Shown one piece after another: positions 2,828 through 52,437 of a stretch of DNA of 64,000 nt. This DNA comes from Bacteroidales bacterium (GTDB lineage Bacteria > Bacteroidota > Bacteroidia > Bacteroidales > P3), in the NCBI GenBank assembly GCA_017428115.1, contig JAFRRK010000052.1, positions 884 through 64,883 on the forward strand, given 5' to 3'. Both the position numbers and the translations under genes were made by a program. Every line of letters begins with the position of its first letter. The first letter of the stretch is position 1. The notes under the pieces were generated by a model. The model was not told the origin of the DNA, did not search any database, and was given only the letters and a program-made list of their open reading frames with translations.

Positions 2828-3739
2828 TTATTCTTCATCATTCCCATACTTGTCCAACATTGCCTTTATCTCTTCTTTCATCTCATCCCGTAGTGATTCG
2901 GGTTTCAGCACCTCCACCCTGCTGCCCAATGAGAGTATCTTCTGTTTAAAGTCAAAGGTCGGGCGCACACGAACCGAGAAGACCGAGTATTCCTCATTCC
3001 GTCTCAGTTCCAGTTGGGAGTGATGAAGAGGGAGCGACCGCAGATAGTTGGCCTGAAAAGCATCCACTTTTATCCAAACACTTTCGACGTTCACGTCATC
3101 CCCAAGAATGATGCCATAGCTGTCTTTAAACATCTCCTCCACATCGAAATCGGGGTCTCTCGTGTATGTCTCCTCTTGGATTTCAATATTGCTAATCCTA
3201 TCCAGCGCAAAGATATGATGCGGCATATCCTCAGTGTACTTGCCGACTACGTACCAGCGACGTTCAAACATCTTCAACGCATGGGGTCGGAAGTCGGTGT
3301 AGTGCGTTACATTGTCGCGCCAGTATGCGCCATAGTCGAACCTCATCATCCGCAACTCCTTCATGGCCTGGAGTATGGCGGGCAGTGGGTCGGTGTGACT
3401 CTCTTCTATGGCGATATATTGTGCCAACTCTTGGCTGTCCATCAGAATCCGGTTCACAGCAATAGAGTTGAGCATCCACTGACGGAAATAGCCGTTCTTG
3501 CCGCTGTCGGCTATACGATAACGGTACACGCCGCCCGACACGTAACATTCAATTTCTATTCCGAAAATATCCTTTATCTCCTCGCGGTGACGATGGAATG
3601 TGCGGTCAGAATAAAGGCGACCACCATTAATATCGTCATTGAAATAATAAGCATCGGCAATCTGCTGGAGCGTCAACCCCACATTGCCCGCCTTCATCAC
3701 AGTATCGACAAGCCAGATATATTTCTTCAAGGGTGTCAT
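2828..3739 (-). CDS. WYL-domain transcriptional regulator (wHTH-WYL-WCX architecture, BrxR/CapW-like)
   Basis: The ORF 2828..3940 is trimmed to the internal ATG at 3739 (MTPLKKYIWLVDTV...). The N-terminal HTH-like segment is LTLQQIADAYY. The central region ...ALKMFERRWYVVGKY...IFALDRI is typical of WYL domains. Length is about 303 aa. Confidence 0.8.
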   Translation of the reverse strand: MTPLKKYIWLVDTVMKAGNVGLTLQQIADAYYFNDDINGGRLYSDRTFHRHREEIKDIFGIEIECYVSGGVYRYRIADSGKNGYFRQWMLNSIAVNRILMDSQELAQYIAIEESHTDPLPAILQAMKELRMMRFDYGAYWRDNVTHYTDFRPHALKMFERRWYVVGKYTEDMPHHIFALDRISNIEIQEETYTRDPDFDVEEMFKDSYGIILGDDVNVESVWIKVDAFQANYLRSLPLHHSQLELRRNEEYSVFSVRVRPTFDFKQKILSLGSRVEVLKPESLRDEMKEEIKAMLDKYGNDEE

Positions 3740-3755
3740 AGGTTGTTCTTGTTGA

Positions 3756-4079
3756 TTAAAAAAAATGAAATCGACATAGAGACTTGCCAGCAATTGCACC
3801 ATGTTGAGTGGTATGTACAAATTTTGCGACAACCACTTTACCTTGCCTTCCGCCTTCAGTTTGAACTTGTGCAATTTTTGCACAGGTTGCCTCCCGTTCC
3901 AACTCTTCTGCCTTGTAGATATTGTTGATATGACGAACAATAGAAGTTCTGTCAGTCAGGAAAAGCTCTGCCATCTGTGCTTGTGTCATCCACACAGTTT
4001 CATTCTCAAACCTCACGTCAATCTGTGTGTTGCCATCGGCAGTCTGGTAGATGATTATCTTGTCATTAACGTTCTCCAT
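3756..4079 (-). pseudogene. RhuM-family (virulence protein RhuM-like) N-terminal stub
   Basis: The first ~79 aa (MENVNDKIIIYQTADGNTQIDVRFENETVWMTQAQMAELF...IAQVQTEGGR) match the N-terminus I recognise from ~330-aa RhuM-family proteins. The remainder is unrelated sequence and the ORF stops at 107 aa. Confidence 0.6.
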
Positions 4080-11207: not shown

Positions 11208-11233
11208 ATCAATAATCTTTTTATATCCGACTG

Positions 11234-11241
11234 CAAAAATA
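11234..11241 (-). promoter_or_regulatory. -7 box (TATTTTTG on the minus strand) of the AAA+ gene
   Basis: TAnnTTTG match about 27 nt upstream of ATG 11207. Confidence 0.5.
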
Positions 11242-41758: not shown

Positions 41759-41809
41759 GTATCCAATAAAAAAGGCAGGAACGTAATGCCCTGCCTTTAA
41801 ACAATCTTG

Positions 41810-41882
41810 AGCGACAGACGGGGTTCGAACCCGCGACCTGCGGCTTGGGAAGCCGCCGCTCTGCCAACTGAGCTACTGTCGC
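41810..41882 (-). tRNA. tRNA-Gly (anticodon CCC)
   Basis: The minus strand reads GCGACAGTAGCTCAGTTGGCAGAGCGGCGGCTTCCCAAGCCGCAGGTCGCGGGTTCGAACCCCGTCTGTCGCT and folds by hand into a cloverleaf. Acceptor stem is GCGACAG/CTGTCGC. Anticodon stem is GCGGC/GCCGC. The anticodon loop TTCCCAA gives CCC. T-loop is TTCGAAC. Confidence 0.9.
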
Positions 41883-44425: not shown

Positions 44426-44695
44426 CTACTTTCTCAAGTTAAGCTTCTTGATAAGGGCACGATAGCGCTCAATATCAATAGCCTTCAAATAATCGAGCTG
44501 ACGGCGGCGCTTGCCAACCAGACCGACCAATGCGCGCTCGCTTACTTGGTCTTTCTTATTCTTCTTCATCAGCTCAGTCAGATGCTGGATTCTGTATGTG
44601 AACAGGGCCACCTGCGCCTCAACCGAACCCGTATCTTGGGCGTTTTTACCATACTCGGCGAAAATCTCTTCTTTTTTCTCTTTTGTCAGATACAT
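44426..44695 (-). CDS. rpsO: 30S ribosomal protein S15
   Basis: MYLTKEKKEEIFAEYG...GSVEAQVALFTYRIQHLTEL signature. Confidence 0.92.
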   Translation of the reverse strand: MYLTKEKKEEIFAEYGKNAQDTGSVEAQVALFTYRIQHLTELMKKNKKDQVSERALVGLVGKRRRQLDYLKAIDIERYRALIKKLNLRK

Positions 44696-44962
44696 AACTA
44701 TTTATACTGTTTTTTATCGTTCTTTATCCTTTCGAATTCGGCTGCAAAATTACAACTTTTTTTTCATCCACAAACATTTTTTCGCAAAAAACATTCAATT
44801 TAACTCTTATTAAGAAAGTTCAACCGCCCAACAGCCCACCTTCCACCCCTCCCCAGCGCACATTGCCATTGAAATACAACTGCAACTAGCCATCAAGCCC
44901 ACCTGCCACTCCGCCCCCCTCTTGGTGCCCTTACACTACCGCCCACACTCCCTTCCGTGAAG

Positions 44963-44993
44963 CGAAGGCACGACGAAACCACGACGAAGCCAC
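44963..44993 (-). repeat. weak partial copy D of the tandem 11-mer core of the repeat family
   Basis: CGAAGGCACGA CGAAACCACGA CGAAGCCAC resembles 30244-30270. The flanks are not clearly alignable. Confidence 0.3.
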
Positions 44994-45212
44994 AACGCCC
45001 CACCATGCCATTTACGACACCGCAACACCTCCCCAAACCTCCACACCTGTCCACTCCGACCCTGTTCGCCCTCCCCACTACGGCAACCCAGCAGCACACC
45101 AACAGCAATCGAGTAGCCAGTGGGCACCGGCAGGGGCGACGCAAAGCACGAGCGAGAAGAAAAAATGACGGCCATGAGTACACAAAAAAATGCCCAAATG
45201 CATTTTTTTTGC

Positions 45213-45220
45213 TATATTTG
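45213..45220 (+). promoter_or_regulatory. -7 box (TATATTTG) at the GC-rich/AT-rich junction, about 260 nt upstream of the 1609-aa gene
   Basis: TAnnTTTG match preceded by T8. Composition switches to AT-rich immediately downstream. Confidence 0.4.
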
Positions 45221-45481
45221 CAGTTGGTAAGCAATAGTGCCGCCGAAACATAAAACACATATAACAAAACAGATAGAACAGATAGAAATAATTAAATACA
45301 TATAATAAAGGCGTTTTCGCTTTTCTTGCCACAACTGAAATCTCGACAATTTCATTTTCATTACACAAGAGAAGGGAACGTTCATGGTTTCCGTGAACTT
45401 TTCTTGTTTGTAATGATAGGTAGTCGAGAACCTCAGTTGTGAACAAAAAGGTTTCACGGTTTTTATTACAAAGTCACAAGT

Positions 45482-48400
45482 ATGAGCAGATTGACAAAAG
45501 AACAACAAGAATTATTCGACAATCTTCACAAGGACAGGCTTGAAGATTATAAAGTATTTAGCAAAAAAGATTATGGTGGACTATTTAAAAGCGTAGTAGA
45601 CAAATATCCAGAATCAGCACATTTTATCTATGAATTACTGCAAAATGCGGATGACGCAAATGCAACAAAGGTTAATATCTTACTGAAGCATGATTGTTTG
45701 TTGTTCAAACACAATGGCACTAAACACTTTAATGTAACCCCCCTTAACTCAAACATCGTTGGAGATATTAATGCTATTACAGGCATAGGGAATTCAACAA
45801 AGATAGATACACAAAACAAGATAGGCAAGTTCGGCGTTGGATTTAAATCAGTGTTTCAATATACGGACACTCCCGAGATATATGACGACACATATAGTTT
45901 TAAAATAGAGAATTATATCATACCAACACTTATTGAAGAAGATCATATTGAGCGTAAAAGAGGAGAAACTCTTTTTGTCTTCCACTTTCGAAATTCAAAT
46001 AACAATTATTTCGAGATAAAGAATAGATTAGAGAAACTTCAAAATCCGATACTATTCCTGCATAATCTTAAGAAAATTGTATGGCAAATCGAGGAATCGA
46101 ATGGACTTATAAGCCAAGAATACATTATTGAAAAAACGTTACGGCAAAAGGAGGTTTTCGATGACATTCAAATGGAACTATATGACATTTTCGACCACAA
46201 AGGATTAAAAACCATCTATTTGTTTAGTCAGAATGTCATTGTTACAAATGACAACAAAAAGACAGAACACCCTATATGCGTTGGCTTCTTTTACAATGAA
46301 GAAAAAAAGAAATTAGTAACAGCAAACCAAAACAGGAAAGTTTTTTGTTTCTTTCCCACAAAGGAATCGTTCAAAACCTGCTTCATCTTACATGCTCCAT
46401 TCTTGCTTACAGACAATAGACAGAATTTAAAGCCTAAAGAAGAAATTAATAAGGACTTTGTTAACCACTTGTCTAAGCTTGCAGCTCAATCAGTTGTAAT
46501 CCTAAAGGACTACGGAATAAAACAAAACAATCTGCTTATCAATGAGAATATCACTGAAATATTGCCACAATACGATGACTCCGACAGGCTGGGCAGTGAC
46601 TATGAATACAAAAGAATGTTTGAAGAATCCTTTAAAGAAATAATGCAAAAGAAAGCCTTATTACTATCTAGAAACAAGAAATACAAATATGTAAACAATT
46701 CCTATACATCGCCAATGAGTGTATATGAATTAGTAGAACAAAAGCAACTAGAACAACTTAAGGGATACAAAGACATTGATTTCTTAGAGTGGGAATTAAT
46801 GCAAAACATTAAGAAATGCAAAGCAGGCTGTGACTATTTTGAGGAACTATCAGAATACACTATTGAGAACTTTGCAAACGACATTACCGCAGACTTCATG
46901 GAGAAACAAAACAAAGCATGGATTTTGAAATTCTACACGTTTGTCCGTGAAGAAGCACGCAAATATTGGGTAATCTCCAATCAAACAAAAGGAAGTTCAC
47001 TTGCTTTCAGGAGTGCCCCCATCATAAAAAATCAACGAGGAGAATGGGTTGCGCCATTTAAAGATATAAGAACACCTAATGTATTTCTCCCCATTGGTAA
47101 AGGGGCTAATAATGAATATAATTTTGTTCATCGCGATTATCTATCGGAAGAAATGGCGAAAAAGCTATTTGATGCATTTGAATTTAAAAAGCCTGACACA
47201 TACGACTATATAAGGAATGTAGTCTTAAACAAATATAATGAAAATGCGAATGACATTCCAGACGAAATCATTAAAGATGACTTCAATACCTTACTAAACT
47301 ATTATAGAGAAATACGAGGTACGGAAAAAGAGAAACAATACATTCAAGACTTACGGAGCCAATACTATCTTAGAAGTAAAGACGGCCTTCTTCACCATTC
47401 GAATGAAATCTTCGTTAATAACGAGGAACTTTCAAAATATTTTGAGGGTAATTATGATGCTGACTTTTTTGATTCTTCATTTTATCAAGATTCGTTTAAA
47501 GGATTTCACAATGTTGTTGTGATGGAATTTCTTGATAAAATAATCACAAGGAAAGTACCTCATATTGAAAAAATAAAAGTTAACTATTACTCAGATTATC
47601 AATTACCAAAAGCATATAAGAAGGTCCTCCCATCATATAAATATTACAATGAGTTTATCATCCAGGACTTTGAGCTATTCGGATTCGAGACAGCTTGCAA
47701 AAAAGGTAACATAACAAAAAAGGTATCTGCTTTCCTATGGAACGACGTTGTGTGGCGTTATTCGAAAGAAACAAAATGTACTATTTCTGCGAGCAACACA
47801 CGAAGAAGCACCTACGACAACTATACGACAGACACTAAATTCAGAAGGGATTTATTGGAATTCAAATGGCTGTACAACAGCAAAAATAAAATAGTAAGCT
47901 CAAGAGAAGTTTACCAAGAAGACTTGTGCGTAGAATACGATTTGACAAATGGAGTAAAGGAGTTTATAGAGATAAGAAAAAGAGTAGAAAATCTTAGAGA
48001 GAAGTATAAAGCAACTGAAGAAGAGCAAGAAAGATATGCCCTTGGAACTGAAATAGAAACAAAATATGGAGAACTTACAAAAGAAGAAATGCTTAAAGTA
48101 CTAGATAAAGCATTAGAGGACAAACGAATACAAAAATCAAAAAGTGCTAATAAAGAGCACCTCCTTGAAATGCCTAATAATGGCCAGGATACAGCATCAG
48201 CAGACCATCTAAGTAATACAGAAGAAGACATCAACGAGAAACTTGAGAGAAAATGGGAAGAGAAAAAGAACACCCATGTCAACAAACCCAATTCTTCAAC
48301 AAATCCTAATGGTTCAACCTCGCTTAACATTGAACATACCAAAATTGGTTCAGATTCCAATAACGAACCTTTTTTTGTAGATTCCATCTCACAAAAAATA

Positions 48401-50311
48401 TCTGAAAAGAACGAGCAGGAATCTACATCTCGAGCTGAAAAAGCTTTGATATCAAAAGACACATCTGCACAAGCCCAAGCTGAAGAAACAAAAGAACAAA
48501 TTGAAATATTAGAATTACTGAAACAAACACAAAAATATAGTTTCAAATGGTTCAAGCTATTGATGGAACTAATGCATGCAGGGAGACAAAAAATCACAGA
48601 GAGAAGCGTTCAAATTGATTTTTCAAAGTATGACACAATATGTTCTGACAAAATAATACATTTAAGCGAGCCCTCCATACCTGTTCCCTCGTGGTGTAGT
48701 GATGCTGAAAAGCATTCAATCATTGCTATATCCGAATGTAAATCGACCAAGATTGAAGGAATAGTAGTAATGTCAACAGATAACAGCATTGATATTTCTA
48801 TTGAGATTAATGACCAGATTCTTCAAGCTTGTCTTGATGCTAAAAAGATACGAGTTGTTGCAACTGACAATACTAATTTTATAGATTCTCTTGAGACTAG
48901 ATTCATTCAACTCGACAAAGAAGATGAATTCGATATGAACCAGAACCTTCCGAACAATATTGAATTCATATATGGTCCCCCTGGAACAGGAAAAACAACA
49001 GAACTAGTCAACCAAGTTCATAAGATACTAGAGATTGAGCCCAATGCGAAAATACTTGTATTGACACCTACCAATAAGGCAGCCGATGTTGTGGCAATCA
49101 AAATGTCGAACGATGAAGTCTGTTATAATTACTTATCACGCTATGGAGCAACAGAAAGCCTATACTTAATAGAGGAAGTGGCTTGTGTTACAAATCGTGA
49201 CACTACGGATATGAATATGTACAATATTGTAGTTGCCACCGCTTCTAGATACGCTTACGATTTCGTTCAGCCAGACGATACTGCTATATGCGACTATCCT
49301 TGGGATTACATCTTTATTGACGAAGCTTCAATGATTGATATACTCACAATTACATTTATCCTGTATAAAGGCTCTACTGCTAAGAAAATAATTGTTTCTG
49401 GCGACCCAAAACAAATACAACCTGTCACTCAGAACGACATGCCAGAATATAACATCTTTGACATGGTTTCACTTCATGGTTTCGCTAATGCTATAGACAA
49501 TTACACCCGTTTTCCTGTTATCCCACTAATGATTCAGCACCGTTCTGTGCCAACTATTGGCACATTAGTTAGCCAATTTGCCTACGACGGACTAGTCCAA
49601 TATGATTCAAATCGCTCACCACAGAAGCCACTACAACTTGACGGACTACAAATAAAGGACATCAACTTCCTTGGCTTTGAAGTAGCTGAACTTGACGAGA
49701 TAAAAGGCCTAACAGTTGTAGGACAATCGGCTTTCAACCTATACTCTGCTATTTTTACGTATAATATGGTAGAATATGTAGCTAGACAAATAGAAAAGTA
49801 TCACAATGACTTAGAATATTCAATTGGTATCGTGTGCGCATATCGGGCACAAGCAGACGCAATCAGAAGTATGCTTGAAAACAGGCCATTGAACACTCCT
49901 AATTGTGTAGTAACGTGCGGTACAGTTCATAGTTTCCAAGGCGACGAATGCGATATTATGTTTATCGTCCTCAATCCTCCAGCACAATGTACTAATGGGA
50001 CACATGTAAATAATGAAAATATTATTAATGTGGCCATGAGCAGAGCACGGGATTATCTGTTCTTTATTCTTCCCAAAGGACAACAAAAGGGTTTCTTCAT
50101 GAAAAACCAAATTGGCAATTCTCTCAAAATGGCTGATAGTTCAATAATAGATTGTAGACATGTCGAGAAGGTACTGTTCAACAATGACAATTATATTTAC
50201 GAAAACACTCATGTTTCTTGCCACATGCCCATAAATGTCTTCTGCGATGATAATGCTATTTATGAAGTAAGAATGGGCGAAGAGGCAATAGACATTAAAA
50301 TAAATAAATAA
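45482..50311 (+). CDS. 1609-aa fusion: N-terminal sacsin/MORC-type GHKL ATPase, long middle region, C-terminal Upf1/DNA2-type SF1 helicase
   Basis: The GHKL N-box is ELLQNADDA (aa 51-59, nt 45632-45658), and GKFGVGFKSVF is the G2-like box. Helicase motifs are GPPGTGKTT (aa 1165-1173), LVLTPTNKAADV, IFIDEASMI, GDPKQIQPV, QHRS, VCAYRAQ, TVHSFQGDECD and NVAMSRAR. A Lys/Glu/Ser/Asn-rich low-complexity segment spans about aa 830-1010. Confidence 0.85.
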   Translation: MSRLTKEQQELFDNLHKDRLEDYKVFSKKDYGGLFKSVVDKYPESAHFIYELLQNADDANATKVNILLKHDCLLFKHNGTKHFNVTPLNSNIVGDINAITGIGNSTKIDTQNKIGKFGVGFKSVFQYTDTPEIYDDTYSFKIENYIIPTLIEEDHIERKRGETLFVFHFRNSNNNYFEIKNRLEKLQNPILFLHNLKKIVWQIEESNGLISQEYIIEKTLRQKEVFDDIQMELYDIFDHKGLKTIYLFSQNVIVTNDNKKTEHPICVGFFYNEEKKKLVTANQNRKVFCFFPTKESFKTCFILHAPFLLTDNRQNLKPKEEINKDFVNHLSKLAAQSVVILKDYGIKQNNLLINENITEILPQYDDSDRLGSDYEYKRMFEESFKEIMQKKALLLSRNKKYKYVNNSYTSPMSVYELVEQKQLEQLKGYKDIDFLEWELMQNIKKCKAGCDYFEELSEYTIENFANDITADFMEKQNKAWILKFYTFVREEARKYWVISNQTKGSSLAFRSAPIIKNQRGEWVAPFKDIRTPNVFLPIGKGANNEYNFVHRDYLSEEMAKKLFDAFEFKKPDTYDYIRNVVLNKYNENANDIPDEIIKDDFNTLLNYYREIRGTEKEKQYIQDLRSQYYLRSKDGLLHHSNEIFVNNEELSKYFEGNYDADFFDSSFYQDSFKGFHNVVVMEFLDKIITRKVPHIEKIKVNYYSDYQLPKAYKKVLPSYKYYNEFIIQDFELFGFETACKKGNITKKVSAFLWNDVVWRYSKETKCTISASNTRRSTYDNYTTDTKFRRDLLEFKWLYNSKNKIVSSREVYQEDLCVEYDLTNGVKEFIEIRKRVENLREKYKATEEEQERYALGTEIETKYGELTKEEMLKVLDKALEDKRIQKSKSANKEHLLEMPNNGQDTASADHLSNTEEDINEKLERKWEEKKNTHVNKPNSSTNPNGSTSLNIEHTKIGSDSNNEPFFVDSISQKISEKNEQESTSRAEKALISKDTSAQAQAEETKEQIEILELLKQTQKYSFKWFKLLMELMHAGRQKITERSVQIDFSKYDTICSDKIIHLSEPSIPVPSWCSDAEKHSIIAISECKSTKIEGIVVMSTDNSIDISIEINDQILQACLDAKKIRVVATDNTNFIDSLETRFIQLDKEDEFDMNQNLPNNIEFIYGPPGTGKTTELVNQVHKILEIEPNAKILVLTPTNKAADVVAIKMSNDEVCYNYLSRYGATESLYLIEEVACVTNRDTTDMNMYNIVVATASRYAYDFVQPDDTAICDYPWDYIFIDEASMIDILTITFILYKGSTAKKIIVSGDPKQIQPVTQNDMPEYNIFDMVSLHGFANAIDNYTRFPVIPLMIQHRSVPTIGTLVSQFAYDGLVQYDSNRSPQKPLQLDGLQIKDINFLGFEVAELDEIKGLTVVGQSAFNLYSAIFTYNMVEYVARQIEKYHNDLEYSIGIVCAYRAQADAIRSMLENRPLNTPNCVVTCGTVHSFQGDECDIMFIVLNPPAQCTNGTHVNNENIINVAMSRARDYLFFILPKGQQKGFFMKNQIGNSLKMADSSIIDCRHVEKVLFNNDNYIYENTHVSCHMPINVFCDDNAIYEVRMGEEAIDIKINK

Positions 50312-50388
50312 ATAGTTCTTCAACGTAGGAGAAAGCGGCCTAATATTCATGTACCATGCGCAAAAGGTTGGAATCAGGGGGCTGATAG

Positions 50389-50556
50389 GCGGAGGGGGGA
50401 TACAGGATAAGCAATCTGACACTTGACGAGGGGCGCCTGTGCTTGAAATTGGATGGATATCATCGGCTGGACGACCACTGCGCGGCCATTTACGACAGGA
50501 TGCGCCACGGCGAGCTGATTACGGTGAGCAAGGTGTATCGGCTGTATCATGTTTAA
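50389..50556 (+). pseudogene. possible 3' remnant of a host gene truncated by the insertion
   Basis: A host-like GC-rich open frame with no start codon (AEGGYRISNLTLDEGRLCLKLDGYHRLDDHCAAIYDRMRHGELITVSKVYRLYHV*), from my own translation. The only ATG is 19 codons before the stop. Confidence 0.3.
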
Positions 50557-50644: not shown

Positions 50645-50652
50645 TACATTTG
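50645..50652 (+). promoter_or_regulatory. -7 box (TACATTTG) upstream of the Na/Pi cotransporter gene
   Basis: TAnnTTTG match about 28 nt upstream of ATG 50680. Confidence 0.45.
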
Positions 50653-50679
50653 CAGACCGTTTGACAGGTGTGCGTTTGC

Positions 50680-52437
50680 ATGAATATTTGGGACATAATA
50701 CTGATAATTATTAAATTTGCGGGTGCCGTGGTGGTGTTTATCTACGGCATGAAACTGATGAGCGAGGGGCTACAGAGGGTGGCGGGAGGCAAGATGCGCA
50801 GGGTACTGGGGAGGAGGACCAGCAACTCGCTTCGCGGCATAGCCACCGGCACGGCAGTGACAGCCGCCATCCAGTCGTCGACGGCCACCACGGTGATGGT
50901 GGTGAGTTTTGTGAACTCGGGCATACTGACATTGTCTGGTGCCATTGCCGTGATAATGGGTGCGAACATAGGCACCACCATTACTTCATGGATTATCCTG
51001 CTGGGCATGAGCAGCAGTGCCGAGAAGTTTGTGATACCGCTTATTGTCTTTGCCATAGCAGCCCCCTTTGTGTTGATGAAGGGCGACAAGGTGAAGTCGA
51101 TTAGCGAGTTCATCATTGGCTTCGGCACTATGCTGGTGGGTCTGCAGTTTCTGCAGGATGTTATGCCCAATCTGATTCAGCACGACGCCCTGCTGGAGGC
51201 GTTGCATAGCTGTTCGGATTGGGGATTGTGGACGATATTGTTGTTTATTCTTATCGGCGCCCTGCTGACGGTGCTTATCCAGGCCTCGTCGGCGGTGATG
51301 GCCATCACCCTGATTTTGACAGCAAACGGATGGATAGGGCTTGATATAGCGGCGGCTATCATCATGGGGCAGAATATAGGCACTACCCTCACCGCCAACA
51401 TTGCCGCCAGGGTGGCAAACTCGTCGGGCAAGAAGGCGGCCAGGGCTCACTTTGTGTTTAATATGGTGGGCTCGGCACTCACCTTGTTGGTATTTTACCC
51501 CGAGATGAACCTGATAGCCTATCTTGCAGAGCTGGCCACGGGCAGTAATGCCAGGTTAGACTATAGGATGCTACCCGTGGCCTTGGTGCCGCTGGCCATT
51601 ACCATCTTCCACACCTTTTTCAACGTCGTCAACACCATCATCCTCTCGTGCTTTATACCTCAGTTTATCAAGGTTGTCGACTGGATGGTGCCTACTTCGA
51701 AGGAGGAGAACGAGGACGAGTTTCGTCTGCGGTTTATCAGCGGCGGTTTTACCAACACGGCCGAGCTGAACATACAGGCGGCGCAGAAGGAGATAGAGGG
51801 TTTTTCGAGGCGTATACTGCGGATGTTCACCTTTCTGCCCCCACTGCGCACCGCCAAGGATGACGAGGAGTTTGACAAGACCATGGCCCAGATAGAGAAA
51901 TATGAGGGTATATCCGACCGTATGGAGATGGAGATAGCCCAATTCCTCACCAAGACTGCCGCGGCCGACTTGTCGGAAGAGGGGTCGCAAAGGGTTTCGT
52001 CGATGCTGCGCATCGTGGACAACCTTGAAAGCATAGGCGACACGATATTCCAGATAGCCATGACGCGCAAGAACAAGCGCGAAACGGCAGTACACTTCGA
52101 CCAAGGGCTGAACGCCAACCTAAGCCACATGACCGAGCTGGTGCAGCAGGCACTTGACGTGATGGACCAGAACGTGAATGGGGAATTTAAGACGATAGAC
52201 CTCGATGCCGCCTATGAGGCGGAGCAGGCCATCAACAGCTATCGCGACGTGCTACGCAAGCGTCATCTTGACGCGCTTAAGCTGGGCGTGTATGATTTTG
52301 CCGTAGGCAATGCCTACAGCAGCTTGTACGCCCTATATGAAAAGATGGGCGACTATATAATCAACGTATCAGAAGCCATAGACAACAGTGTGAAGTTGGC
52401 CGAGACAATAGGCGAAAGCCCCAATAGCAAAGAATAA
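50680..52437 (+). CDS. Na/Pi cotransporter family protein with a PhoU-like C-terminal domain
   Basis: Start trimmed to MNIWDIILIIIKFAG. Duplicated NptA motifs are present (QSSTATTVMVVSF, QASSAVMAITL), followed by a helical PhoU-like tail. Confidence 0.85.
   Translation: MNIWDIILIIIKFAGAVVVFIYGMKLMSEGLQRVAGGKMRRVLGRRTSNSLRGIATGTAVTAAIQSSTATTVMVVSFVNSGILTLSGAIAVIMGANIGTTITSWIILLGMSSSAEKFVIPLIVFAIAAPFVLMKGDKVKSISEFIIGFGTMLVGLQFLQDVMPNLIQHDALLEALHSCSDWGLWTILLFILIGALLTVLIQASSAVMAITLILTANGWIGLDIAAAIIMGQNIGTTLTANIAARVANSSGKKAARAHFVFNMVGSALTLLVFYPEMNLIAYLAELATGSNARLDYRMLPVALVPLAITIFHTFFNVVNTIILSCFIPQFIKVVDWMVPTSKEENEDEFRLRFISGGFTNTAELNIQAAQKEIEGFSRRILRMFTFLPPLRTAKDDEEFDKTMAQIEKYEGISDRMEMEIAQFLTKTAAADLSEEGSQRVSSMLRIVDNLESIGDTIFQIAMTRKNKRETAVHFDQGLNANLSHMTELVQQALDVMDQNVNGEFKTIDLDAAYEAEQAINSYRDVLRKRHLDALKLGVYDFAVGNAYSSLYALYEKMGDYIINVSEAIDNSVKLAETIGESPNSKE

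Follow-up and report, generated by a model that had tools for sequence, protein, structure and literature searches.

Tiamat is listed among the single-gene PD-(D/E)XK systems of bacterial defence (bioRxiv 10.1101/2024.10.26.620412), and DUF3883, a tail met in relatives of its protein TmtA, is a domain of restriction-endonuclease fold (PMC3710099). In VcSduA, which joins a GHKL ATPase to a nuclease, defence is lost in ATPase mutants and in effector mutants (PMC12137116), while Mokosh requires the ATP site of its Upf1-like helicase (bioRxiv 10.1101/2022.05.11.491447). A survey of paraMORC ATPases from 2008 described superfamily 2 helicases in neighbouring genes and not fused superfamily 1 (SF1) helicases (PMC2292703). 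Here, we analysed a window of 64,000 nucleotides from a gut Bacteroidales bacterium (contig JAFRRK010000052.1), the window being the whole stretch of DNA under study. Positions 45482..50311 (+) are one open reading frame (ORF) with an ATG start and 1,609 codons for 1,609 amino acids (aa), deposited from a metagenome-assembled genome as GenBank MBQ6069007.1, 'AAA family ATPase [Bacteroidales bacterium]'. This coding sequence joins a sacsin/Hsp90-type GHKL ATPase to a Upf1-like SF1 helicase in one polypeptide.

The most plausible reading, to which we give a probability of about 0.55, is that the gene encodes an autonomous, horizontally acquired single-gene conflict protein, anti-phage or anti-plasmid, of the Tiamat lineage, in which a helicase replaces the C-terminal nuclease. 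Four observations are consistent with it: the same N-terminal module occurs with an HNH tail, a DUF3883 tail or a helicase; both sets of ATPase motifs are invariant; the gene has a promoter motif of its own; and its insertion is polymorphic between strains. We infer the putative defence role from homology, from this strain polymorphism and from the neighbourhoods of related genes.

Architecture of the fusion protein and its homology to TmtA

The fusion of a GHKL ATPase to a Upf1/Dna2-type SF1 helicase had been proposed in a first-pass annotation of the nucleotide sequence, and was confirmed by Pfam, by AlphaFold2 (AF2) models of two monomer fragments (aa 1-830 and aa 1000-1609) and by Foldseek. 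Motif conservation was judged from 55 aligned full-length homologs (43-69% identity). The motifs quoted in that annotation (YELLQNADDA, GKFGVGFKSVF, K1171 and NVAMSRAR) lie at the residues it gave and are invariant in all 55.

The first 320 residues (45482..46441, +) form a sacsin/Hsp90-type GHKL domain of the Bergerat fold according to Pfam, NCBIfam, AF2 and Foldseek. Pfam SACS (PF25794) matches aa 34-136 with E=3.7e-18 and takes the place of the HATPase_c_3 match that had been expected, of which there was none; the NCBIfam model P_loop_sacsin, for the sacsin N-terminal ATP-binding-like domain, matches with E=3e-23. The GHKL residues E51, N55 and D58 (YELLQNADDA) and G115, G118 and G120 (GKFGVGFKSVF) are invariant among the homologs, and motif I (ExxxNxxD) and the glycine-rich lid (GxxGxG) align to the crystal structures of sacsin SR1 by family profile (E=5.6e-12). 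The model of aa 1-830 has a mean predicted local distance difference test score (pLDDT) of 88. Its best Foldseek matches are full-length Hsp90 and TRAP1, over ~530-590 columns with E~1e-10, and further matches are sacsin SR1 and the N-terminal regions of GyrB/ParE and MutL/PMS1. A mostly helical part at aa 321-560 (46442..47161, +), inside the TmtA-homologous aa 13-812, is like the Hsp90 middle domain by Foldseek to Hsp90/TRAP1, and in the model residues ~140-560 continue an Hsp90-like fold of N-terminal and middle domains (N+M). The structural matches to Hsp90/TRAP1 and the profile alignment to sacsin SR1 place the module in the Hsp90/sacsin branch of GHKL ATPases, with a middle domain, and not in MORC; no MORC structure was found among the top 50 Foldseek matches. 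Of the earlier label 'sacsin/MORC-type', the sacsin/Hsp90 branch is therefore retained and MORC/paraMORC is given up on the evidence of the Pfam and Foldseek matches.

Profile comparison ties the window protein to a named defence system, TmtA of Tiamat being homologous to its N-terminal ~800 residues. The PADLOC model PDLC03972 for TmtA (Tiamat) matches aa 13-812 at model positions 8-806 of 1302 (E=5.8e-46), and eight more TmtA models match with E=1.5e-41 to 2.8e-13. The canonical architecture of TmtA was deduced from PADLOC model coverage and from annotated relatives from plasmids, since the preprint of Millman et al. does not include Tiamat. One of them, a 1,561-aa haloarchaeal 'HNH endonuclease', aligns to a TmtA model over positions 27-1335 of 1486 (E=2.8e-170) and then has an HNH domain, and a 'DUF3883 domain-containing protein' encoded beside NERD and Qat genes matches in two stretches (E=2.5e-83). 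The helicase fusions match only the first ~800-940 TmtA model positions, related fusions ending at ~922-938, and the closest helicase-less relatives are likewise limited to this part of the model.

The alpha/beta region common to TmtA (aa 561-830; 47162..47971, +) follows from the match to PDLC03972 up to model position 806. It is ~30% conserved, and P571, Y585, L650, Y668, P693, S749 and W753 are its only residues invariant across homologs of 30-69% identity. All of these are Pro, Tyr, Leu, Ser or Trp and none is Asp, Glu, Lys or His, which argues against a catalytic domain. The region is followed by a linker of variable length, recognised by composition and alignment at aa 831-1010 (47972..48511, +), which is rich in Glu, Lys, Ser and Asn. 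The first-pass annotation had noted such a stretch at about aa 830-1010, and the composition bears this out (63% K/E/S/N/T/D/Q). The linker is 30% conserved, ranges from 161 to 188 aa across homologs and, judged by its composition, is probably disordered. The same annotation had seen about 800 aa without a recognisable motif between the two ATPases. This gap has become smaller, with ~140-560 now assigned to the Hsp90-like N+M fold and ~1011-1140 to an accessory domain just before RecA1; ~561-1010, and also the tail at 1536-1609, stay unassigned.

The C-terminal part (aa ~1011-1535) is confidently predicted, from its model, to be a Upf1/Sen1/Dna2-like SF1B helicase. The AF2 model of aa 1000-1609 (pLDDT 84; predicted template modelling score 0.82) consists of a helix, a beta-rich domain, RecA1, RecA2 and a small tail. 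The helix and the beta-rich accessory domain directly before RecA1 take up aa 1011-1140 (48512..48901, +) in this model, with strands at aa ~1041-1129; from their place in the model they could correspond to the accessory beta-barrel and stalk domains (1B/1C-type) that surround RecA1 in Upf1-like helicases. This part is 54% conserved, and W1023, H1032, F1047 and W1071 are invariant. The helicase core of RecA1 and RecA2 at aa 1141-1535 (48902..50086, +) was recognised by Pfam, PADLOC and Foldseek. Pfam places AAA_11, AAA_12, AAA_19 and AAA_30 at aa 1145-1529, the first two having been anticipated. Motifs I, Ia, II, III, IV, V and VI are all intact and invariant in the 55 sequences, the residues concerned being G1165-T1172 with K1171, T1195-K1199, D1280/E1281, G1307-D-P-x-Q1311, Q1352/R1354, T1481..G1487 and R1521 (NVAMSRAR). 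Foldseek with the helicase model found SETX/Sen1, Upf1 (6EJ5), Ighmbp2, Dna2 and ZNFX1 (E=1e-18 to 3e-25), the matches to Upf1, Sen1 and Ighmbp2 having E<=1e-21.

A conserved C-terminal tail at aa 1536-1609 (50087..50308, +) is 55% conserved and carries C1558, H1577, C1580 and H1581, each retained in 51-55 of the 55 sequences. A second near-invariant group of Cys and His lies in RecA2 (C1475, C1479, C1490, C1503 and H1508). In the window the two groups map to 49904-50005 (C1475-H1508) and 50153-50224 (C1558-H1581), and from the pattern of residues they could be metal-binding sites.

The absence of an evident nuclease, already remarked on in the first-pass annotation, was borne out by Pfam, fold and motif searches. 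Permissive Pfam scans of aa 140-560, 561-830, 831-1140 and 1530-1609 returned nothing, the fold searches with the N-module returned GHKL proteins only and no nuclease fold, and a motif search of the protein found neither the PLD HxK/HKD motif (H.K....D) nor an HNH motif. The PADLOC models for Mokosh match the helicase, MkoA (PDLC03920) with E=1e-33 and MkoC with E=2.9e-16, the MkoC match covering helicase positions 825-940 only; no PLD match was found in Pfam or PADLOC and no kinase family in Pfam.

A strain-variable insertion between housekeeping genes

The gene is a presence/absence insertion in one species, between housekeeping genes. Alleles of the site were found through contigs that encode the exact S15 protein of the window. 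Three of these (L008, L009 and L012) are occupied and 100% identical to the window, and two (L010 and L013) are empty, with ~850 bp from rpsO to the Na/Pi transporter gene. Up to 45086, and once more from 50313 onwards, the window and the empty allele are ~98.9% identical. Comparison with the empty-site contigs delimits a strain-variable insert of 5,226 bp at 45087..50312, which stands in place of 91 bp unique to the empty allele and contains a promoter motif, a structured leader and the single gene. The earlier proposal of a single-gene insertion is substantiated by this empty-site allele, with the amendment that the inserted unit is larger than the ORF. The coexistence of occupied and empty alleles in one species also offers a natural isogenic comparison.

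The insert is foreign in composition, its GC content being 0.354 versus 0.47-0.48 in the remaining window. Along the gene (45500-49500) GC is 0.33-0.38, whereas the flanking pnp and Na/Pi-transporter genes have 0.50-0.60. The ORF call, the GC profile and the neighbours agree with the previous description of one ORF in AT-rich DNA between rpsO and a Na/Pi transporter. The neighbour on one side is rpsO (44426-44695, -), preceded by pnp, and on the other a Na/Pi cotransporter gene (50668-52437, +). The order on the rpsO side is thrS, tRNA-Gly, pnp, rpsO; on the Na/Pi side the cotransporter is accompanied by genes for an AIR-synthase-related protein and a HIT protein and by greA.

The right junction is exact and lies one base past the stop codon. 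The left junction is blurred, in a variable C-rich stretch at ~45050-45090, where identity between alleles is 85-95% vs ~99% in the surrounding DNA. Comparison of the junctions and a repeat search found no target-site duplication, terminal inverted repeat or recombinase for the 5.2-kb insert, and the only tRNA that might be considered as a target (Gly-CCC, 41809-41882) is 3 kb off. A 13-nt direct repeat, GCCATTTACGACA (45007 and 50485), was considered as a target-site duplication and rejected: in the empty allele the left-hand copy is missing, the right-hand one lies 173 nt beyond the edge of the insert, and by our estimate chance would give ~0.3 such pairs. We likewise rejected an import that brought a long, diverged stretch of donor DNA with it: raised divergence is confined to the final ~330 nt of the C-rich left flank, and on the right side identity stays at 99.6% as far as the junction. 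The 91-bp segment of the empty site shows no similarity to the insert and is not a remnant of it. A third allele at the site was dismissed as well, all short rpsO contigs matching the flank of the occupied type.

Two features of the insert precede the gene. The Bacteroides -7 promoter consensus is TAnnTTTG, and through this consensus we take TATATTTGCAG at 45213..45223 (+), inside the insert, to be a putative Bacteroidetes-type promoter. The extended motif TANNTTTGCAG (TAnnTTTGCAG) has four sites in the window vs 0.76 expected: 11231-11241 (-), 44742-44752 (-), 45213-45223 (+) and 50645-50655 (+). Three of the four sit just upstream of a gene, namely rpsO (44742-44752), the fusion gene (45213-45223) and the Na/Pi gene (50645-50655), and TAnnTTTGCAG is probably the -7 element of this organism's promoters plus start-site context. 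Between the motif and the ATG is a 5' leader of ~250 nt in which folding predicts a long nested hairpin of ~110 nt (45330..45440, +). The stretch that holds it (45225-45490, 266 nt) has a minimum free energy of -62.4 kcal/mol (z=-3.6 vs shuffles), and 7 of the 31 hairpin pairs, in the outer stem, are preserved by two-sided changes in the sole homologous leader (L018). An inner hairpin at 45380-45398 followed by a T-run scores as terminator-like, and the whole could be an attenuator. Rfam has no family that matches the hairpin, and a search of JGI metagenomes with the leader motif gave 0 matches; the hairpin is carried by two sequences only, the window and L018.

Some further features lie close to the insert. 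A 37-aa ORF, MKLDGYHRLDDHCAAIYDRMRHGELITVSKVYRLYHV, at 50443-50556 (+) lies in the gap that separates the insert from the Na/Pi gene; gene calling picks it up in the empty alleles as well. Upstream of rpsO, a C-rich non-coding stretch at 44800-45090 has a strong GC skew of -0.36 and is found in occupied and empty alleles, which are only 85-95% identical over it. An Rfam match to the S15 leader at 44639-44748 (-), which overlaps the start of rpsO, is sub-threshold (20 bits vs a gathering score of 39.5; E=0.3).

Family size and genomic contexts

The family is large and old and occurs in Bacteroidota and Bacillota. Among 3,439 matches there were at least 120 full-length homologs with the same Pfam set (1,533-1,665 aa, all but one of at least 1,578 aa). 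A search with the N-module in a library of 50%-identity clusters gave 4,358 clusters, 953 of them at E<=1e-30; the helicase is present in 89 of the best 150 cluster representatives, and 79 of these 89 have the tail too. Of the first 600 pattern matches in JGI metagenomes, 521 proved to be relatives, and 61 of 72 recoverable genes encode the helicase. Full-length homologs with 30-32% identity extend the family to a Chryseobacterium plasmid and, among the matches listed in a scan of species genomes, to the Firmicute Sutcliffiella tianshenii. Among 72,556 plasmid records only 13 match the N-module. A search of IMG/VR viral contigs found no relatives, and 50,697 phage records yielded partial matches and no full-length relative. 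One of these records, MT835838.1 (match H14), is an unannotated 16.8-kb 'Bacteriophage sp.' contig of human-faecal origin, which at 2888-3766 encodes a 31%-identical relative of GHKL aa 29-338.

The N-module is not always joined to the helicase. Two relatives (P0216 and P0235) end in a second HATPase_c domain of histidine-kinase type, and seven others (P0132, P0137-P0139, P0142, P0147 and P0149) have N-terminal extensions of 126-166 aa, or 343 aa in P0132, with no Pfam match. Such tails and extensions are further signs of a module that combines with different partners. Other relatives of the N-module have C-termini without domain assignment.

The neighbourhood differs at every locus examined and defence or toxin genes are often present, so that the homologs sit in variable and not in conserved housekeeping contexts, as the first-pass annotation would lead one to expect of a defence gene. 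The gene follows ftsY, a radical-SAM gene and UPF0102 in one contig (L004), stands between DUF389 and Fic in another (L006), and is found amid small hypothetical genes (L007), after a PIN toxin pair (L019), before a SIR2 gene (L027) or before DUF3791/DUF3990 (L029). In L024 (1-9907) it comes directly after a gene pair encoding an AAA_15/AAA_21 ATPase and a 237-aa protein, a few kb from an element with integrase, T5orf172, HTH_17 and AAA_23 genes; this locus is a compact defence islet adjoining an integrative element. The Chryseobacterium plasmid copy (L001) lies within methyltransferase, DEAD-helicase and helicase genes, and the Sutcliffiella copy (L022) beside genes for a C5-methylase, a MutH/Sau3AI-type endonuclease, UvrD-like helicases and a PIN protein. 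In the metagenome loci the gene is accompanied by, among others, type I restriction subunits, C5-methylases, HEC-06, HmaB and PDC-S68. In all Bacteroidales loci that were examined, namely the window and six other contexts, the fusion gene has a higher AT content than its flanks. Many metagenome contigs (L004, L005, L018, L019, L020 and L021) end 60-150 bp past the stop codon of the gene, which fits assembly breaks at a strain-variable junction.

A candidate defence function and its relation to known systems

Several points weigh against a role in defence, or against the way in which it is pictured here. No known defence gene adjoins the fusion gene in the window or in several other Bacteroidales loci. 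A far-neighbour control was as rich in restriction-modification genes as the near set, and the PADLOC census consists of per-family counts from which no enrichment figure is derivable. In the GHKL domain the canonical motif II Asp (DxGxG) is not evident and an invariant H77-N78-G79 is seen instead, an arrangement likened to that of sacsin although the alignment is gappy there; with this replacement, binding of ATP by the N-module is assumed. The AF2 models are of monomer fragments, and a dimer and contacts between the domains fall outside them. Pfam, whole-model fold and motif searches identified no nuclease or recognisable toxic effector in the protein, so the way in which an invader would be killed or blocked is conjecture. 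Finally, the mechanism of Tiamat itself is described as unknown (PMC12629846), in 2026 still (PMC13139388).

A mechanism may still be sketched for a single-gene conflict protein of this architecture. GHKL ATPases with middle domains are ATP-driven dimeric clamps, and Upf1-like helicases move 5'->3' along single strands and clear proteins away, Sen1 dislodging RNA polymerase. One may speculate that the Hsp90-like GHKL module would dimerise on ATP binding and serve as a clamp or gate that recognises nucleic acid or protein of the invader. Once licensed by the clamp, the helicase tethered to it could engage single-stranded RNA or DNA and translocate in the 5'->3' direction, stripping polymerases or other proteins or unwinding RNA:DNA or replication intermediates in the manner of Sen1/senataxin. 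The transcription or replication of the invader might in this way be blocked directly, or its nucleic acid exposed to host nucleases. By analogy with the DUF3883- and HNH-tailed Tiamat proteins the helicase would by its position be the effector; the roles could also be reversed, the helicase being the sensor. These mechanistic details are held with considerably less confidence than the reading as a defence gene. The most specific form, a nuclease-free immune protein with two ATPase motors, in which an Hsp90-like clamp senses a nucleic-acid or protein cue of the phage and releases a Upf1/Sen1-like translocase that would halt phage transcription or replication through displacement of proteins or RNA and not through cutting, is offered tentatively and is in itself unlikely. 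If true, senataxin, ZNFX1 or MOV10-type restriction would have a counterpart in bacteria, and the Tiamat N-module would be a portable sensor or gate for interchangeable effectors (DUF3883, HNH, helicase or a second HATPase).

An alternative that we regard as rather unlikely is that the protein is one component of a larger system, in which the GHKL-helicase senses or remodels the nucleic acid of the invader and the nuclease or other effector, for instance a restriction enzyme or a host RNase, is encoded elsewhere, the solo Bacteroidales copy working in trans. A polypeptide in which no nuclease was found would suit this arrangement. Distant homologs adjoin methyltransferase, endonuclease and helicase genes, type I restriction endonuclease genes are among the near neighbours, and close same-strand ORFs are frequent in the metagenome loci, within 200 nt upstream in 28 of 47 and within 200 nt downstream in 18 of 30. 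Yet a constant partner gene was sought in 61 loci and rejected: the adjacent ORFs split into numerous small clusters unrelated to one another, and none of these accompanies the gene throughout. The helicases encoded downstream in the Chryseobacterium and Sutcliffiella loci are not orthologous. The window insert carries one gene only, and several other contexts are also solo. Within one sub-clade (L051, L052, L054, L055 and L102) a conserved 106-aa ORF lies exactly 38 nt upstream of the fusion gene and may be a lineage-specific partner or regulator.

An accessory factor of nucleic-acid metabolism or quality control, such as a remodeller of R-loops or ribonucleoproteins or a chaperone-coupled helicase, appears improbable. 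In structure, both halves come closest to housekeeping proteins of eukaryotes (Hsp90/TRAP1/sacsin and Upf1/Sen1/Ighmbp2), no toxin-like effector was recognised, and the gene is inserted among rpsO, pnp and thrS with a normal host promoter motif, all of which would be in keeping with such a function. Presence and absence between ~99% identical strains, the foreign base composition and a different location in each lineage speak against it, as do the plasmid copy inside a methyltransferase/helicase cluster and the homology of the N-module to nuclease-tailed Tiamat proteins. Least convincing, and very unlikely in our judgement, is a selfish gene serving a mobile element (element competition, or maintenance of a plasmid or an integrative and conjugative element) and left by a decayed element, since the full-length homolog on the Chryseobacterium plasmid, the one near the integrase/excisionase/T5orf172 element and the partial N-domain relative on a phage-labelled contig are set against a 5.2-kb insert without recombinase, repeats or other element genes, the lack of IMG/VR relatives and of full-length ones in the phage records, and the few plasmid records that match the N-module.

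Under the reading as a defence protein of the Tiamat lineage, the family keeps the Tiamat module of ~800 residues and swaps the nuclease for a helicase, which suggests a portable sensor or regulator and provides a second, very abundant architecture for its study. Should defence work without a nuclease, non-degradative, helicase-driven interference would join the repertoire of bacterial immunity and be tied to the Upf1-like antiviral helicases of eukaryotes. Databases label the family with no more than 'AAA family ATPase' or 'exonuclease V alpha subunit'. As it covers just ~60% of the best TmtA model, today's defence-system callers probably miss it, and the defence repertoires of Bacteroidales from gut and rumen may thus be larger than counted.

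Literature searches gave no description of a sacsin/Hsp90-type GHKL ATPase fused to a Upf1-like helicase as a defence system, and the suspicion that no characterised system has this exact one-polypeptide architecture was upheld. A parallel in design is VcSduA, of the paraMORC3-type Shedu, a single polypeptide in which an N-terminal GHKL ATPase is thought to gate a C-terminal effector via a dimeric clamp; it differs in belonging to the HATPase_c/paraMORC branch of GHKL and in having a DUF4263 PD-(D/E)xK nuclease as effector and not a helicase. Nuclease-helicase immunity (Nhi) of staphylococci, compared here by description only, is similar as a one-protein immunity, described as a 'single multifunctional enzyme'. 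Its helicase is reportedly Upf1-like, and Nhi is said to have a nuclease domain and to lack a GHKL module.

Each half of the protein also has eukaryotic relatives. Sacsin (SRR/SR1) and the Hsp90 chaperones share motif I and the glycine-rich lid in the case of sacsin SR1 and the overall N+M fold in the case of Hsp90/TRAP1, but they belong to a eukaryotic chaperone context, are without a helicase and have only ~12-20% identity to the window protein. The helicases Upf1, Sen1, ZNFX1, Ighmbp2 and Dna2, with roles in surveillance or immunity in eukaryotes, have the same SF1B fold and motif set, and several of them, lacking a nuclease, work through displacement of proteins or RNA; their identity to the window protein is ~15%, and none is fused to a GHKL module.

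Among the named defence systems, Mokosh (MkoA/MkoB in type I, MkoC in type II) shares the Upf1-like (COG1112) SF1 helicase, and its type II is also a single polypeptide. It is distinguished by a PLD-family nuclease, to which type I adds a Ser/Thr kinase (bioRxiv 10.1101/2022.05.11.491447), and by having no GHKL module. Tiamat, an anti-phage system included in PADLOC and DefenseFinder, is likewise one large single-gene protein, found in hotspots and islands, and its N-terminal ~800 residues are homologous to those of the window protein. The two diverge beyond this point, where the strong TmtA matches end in an HNH or DUF3883 nuclease whereas the clade of the window protein has, from ~806-940, the linker and the Upf1-like helicase. 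As the nuclease that defines Tiamat and that which defines Mokosh are both missing from it, the protein is counted as a member of neither and is filed here as a variant of Tiamat.

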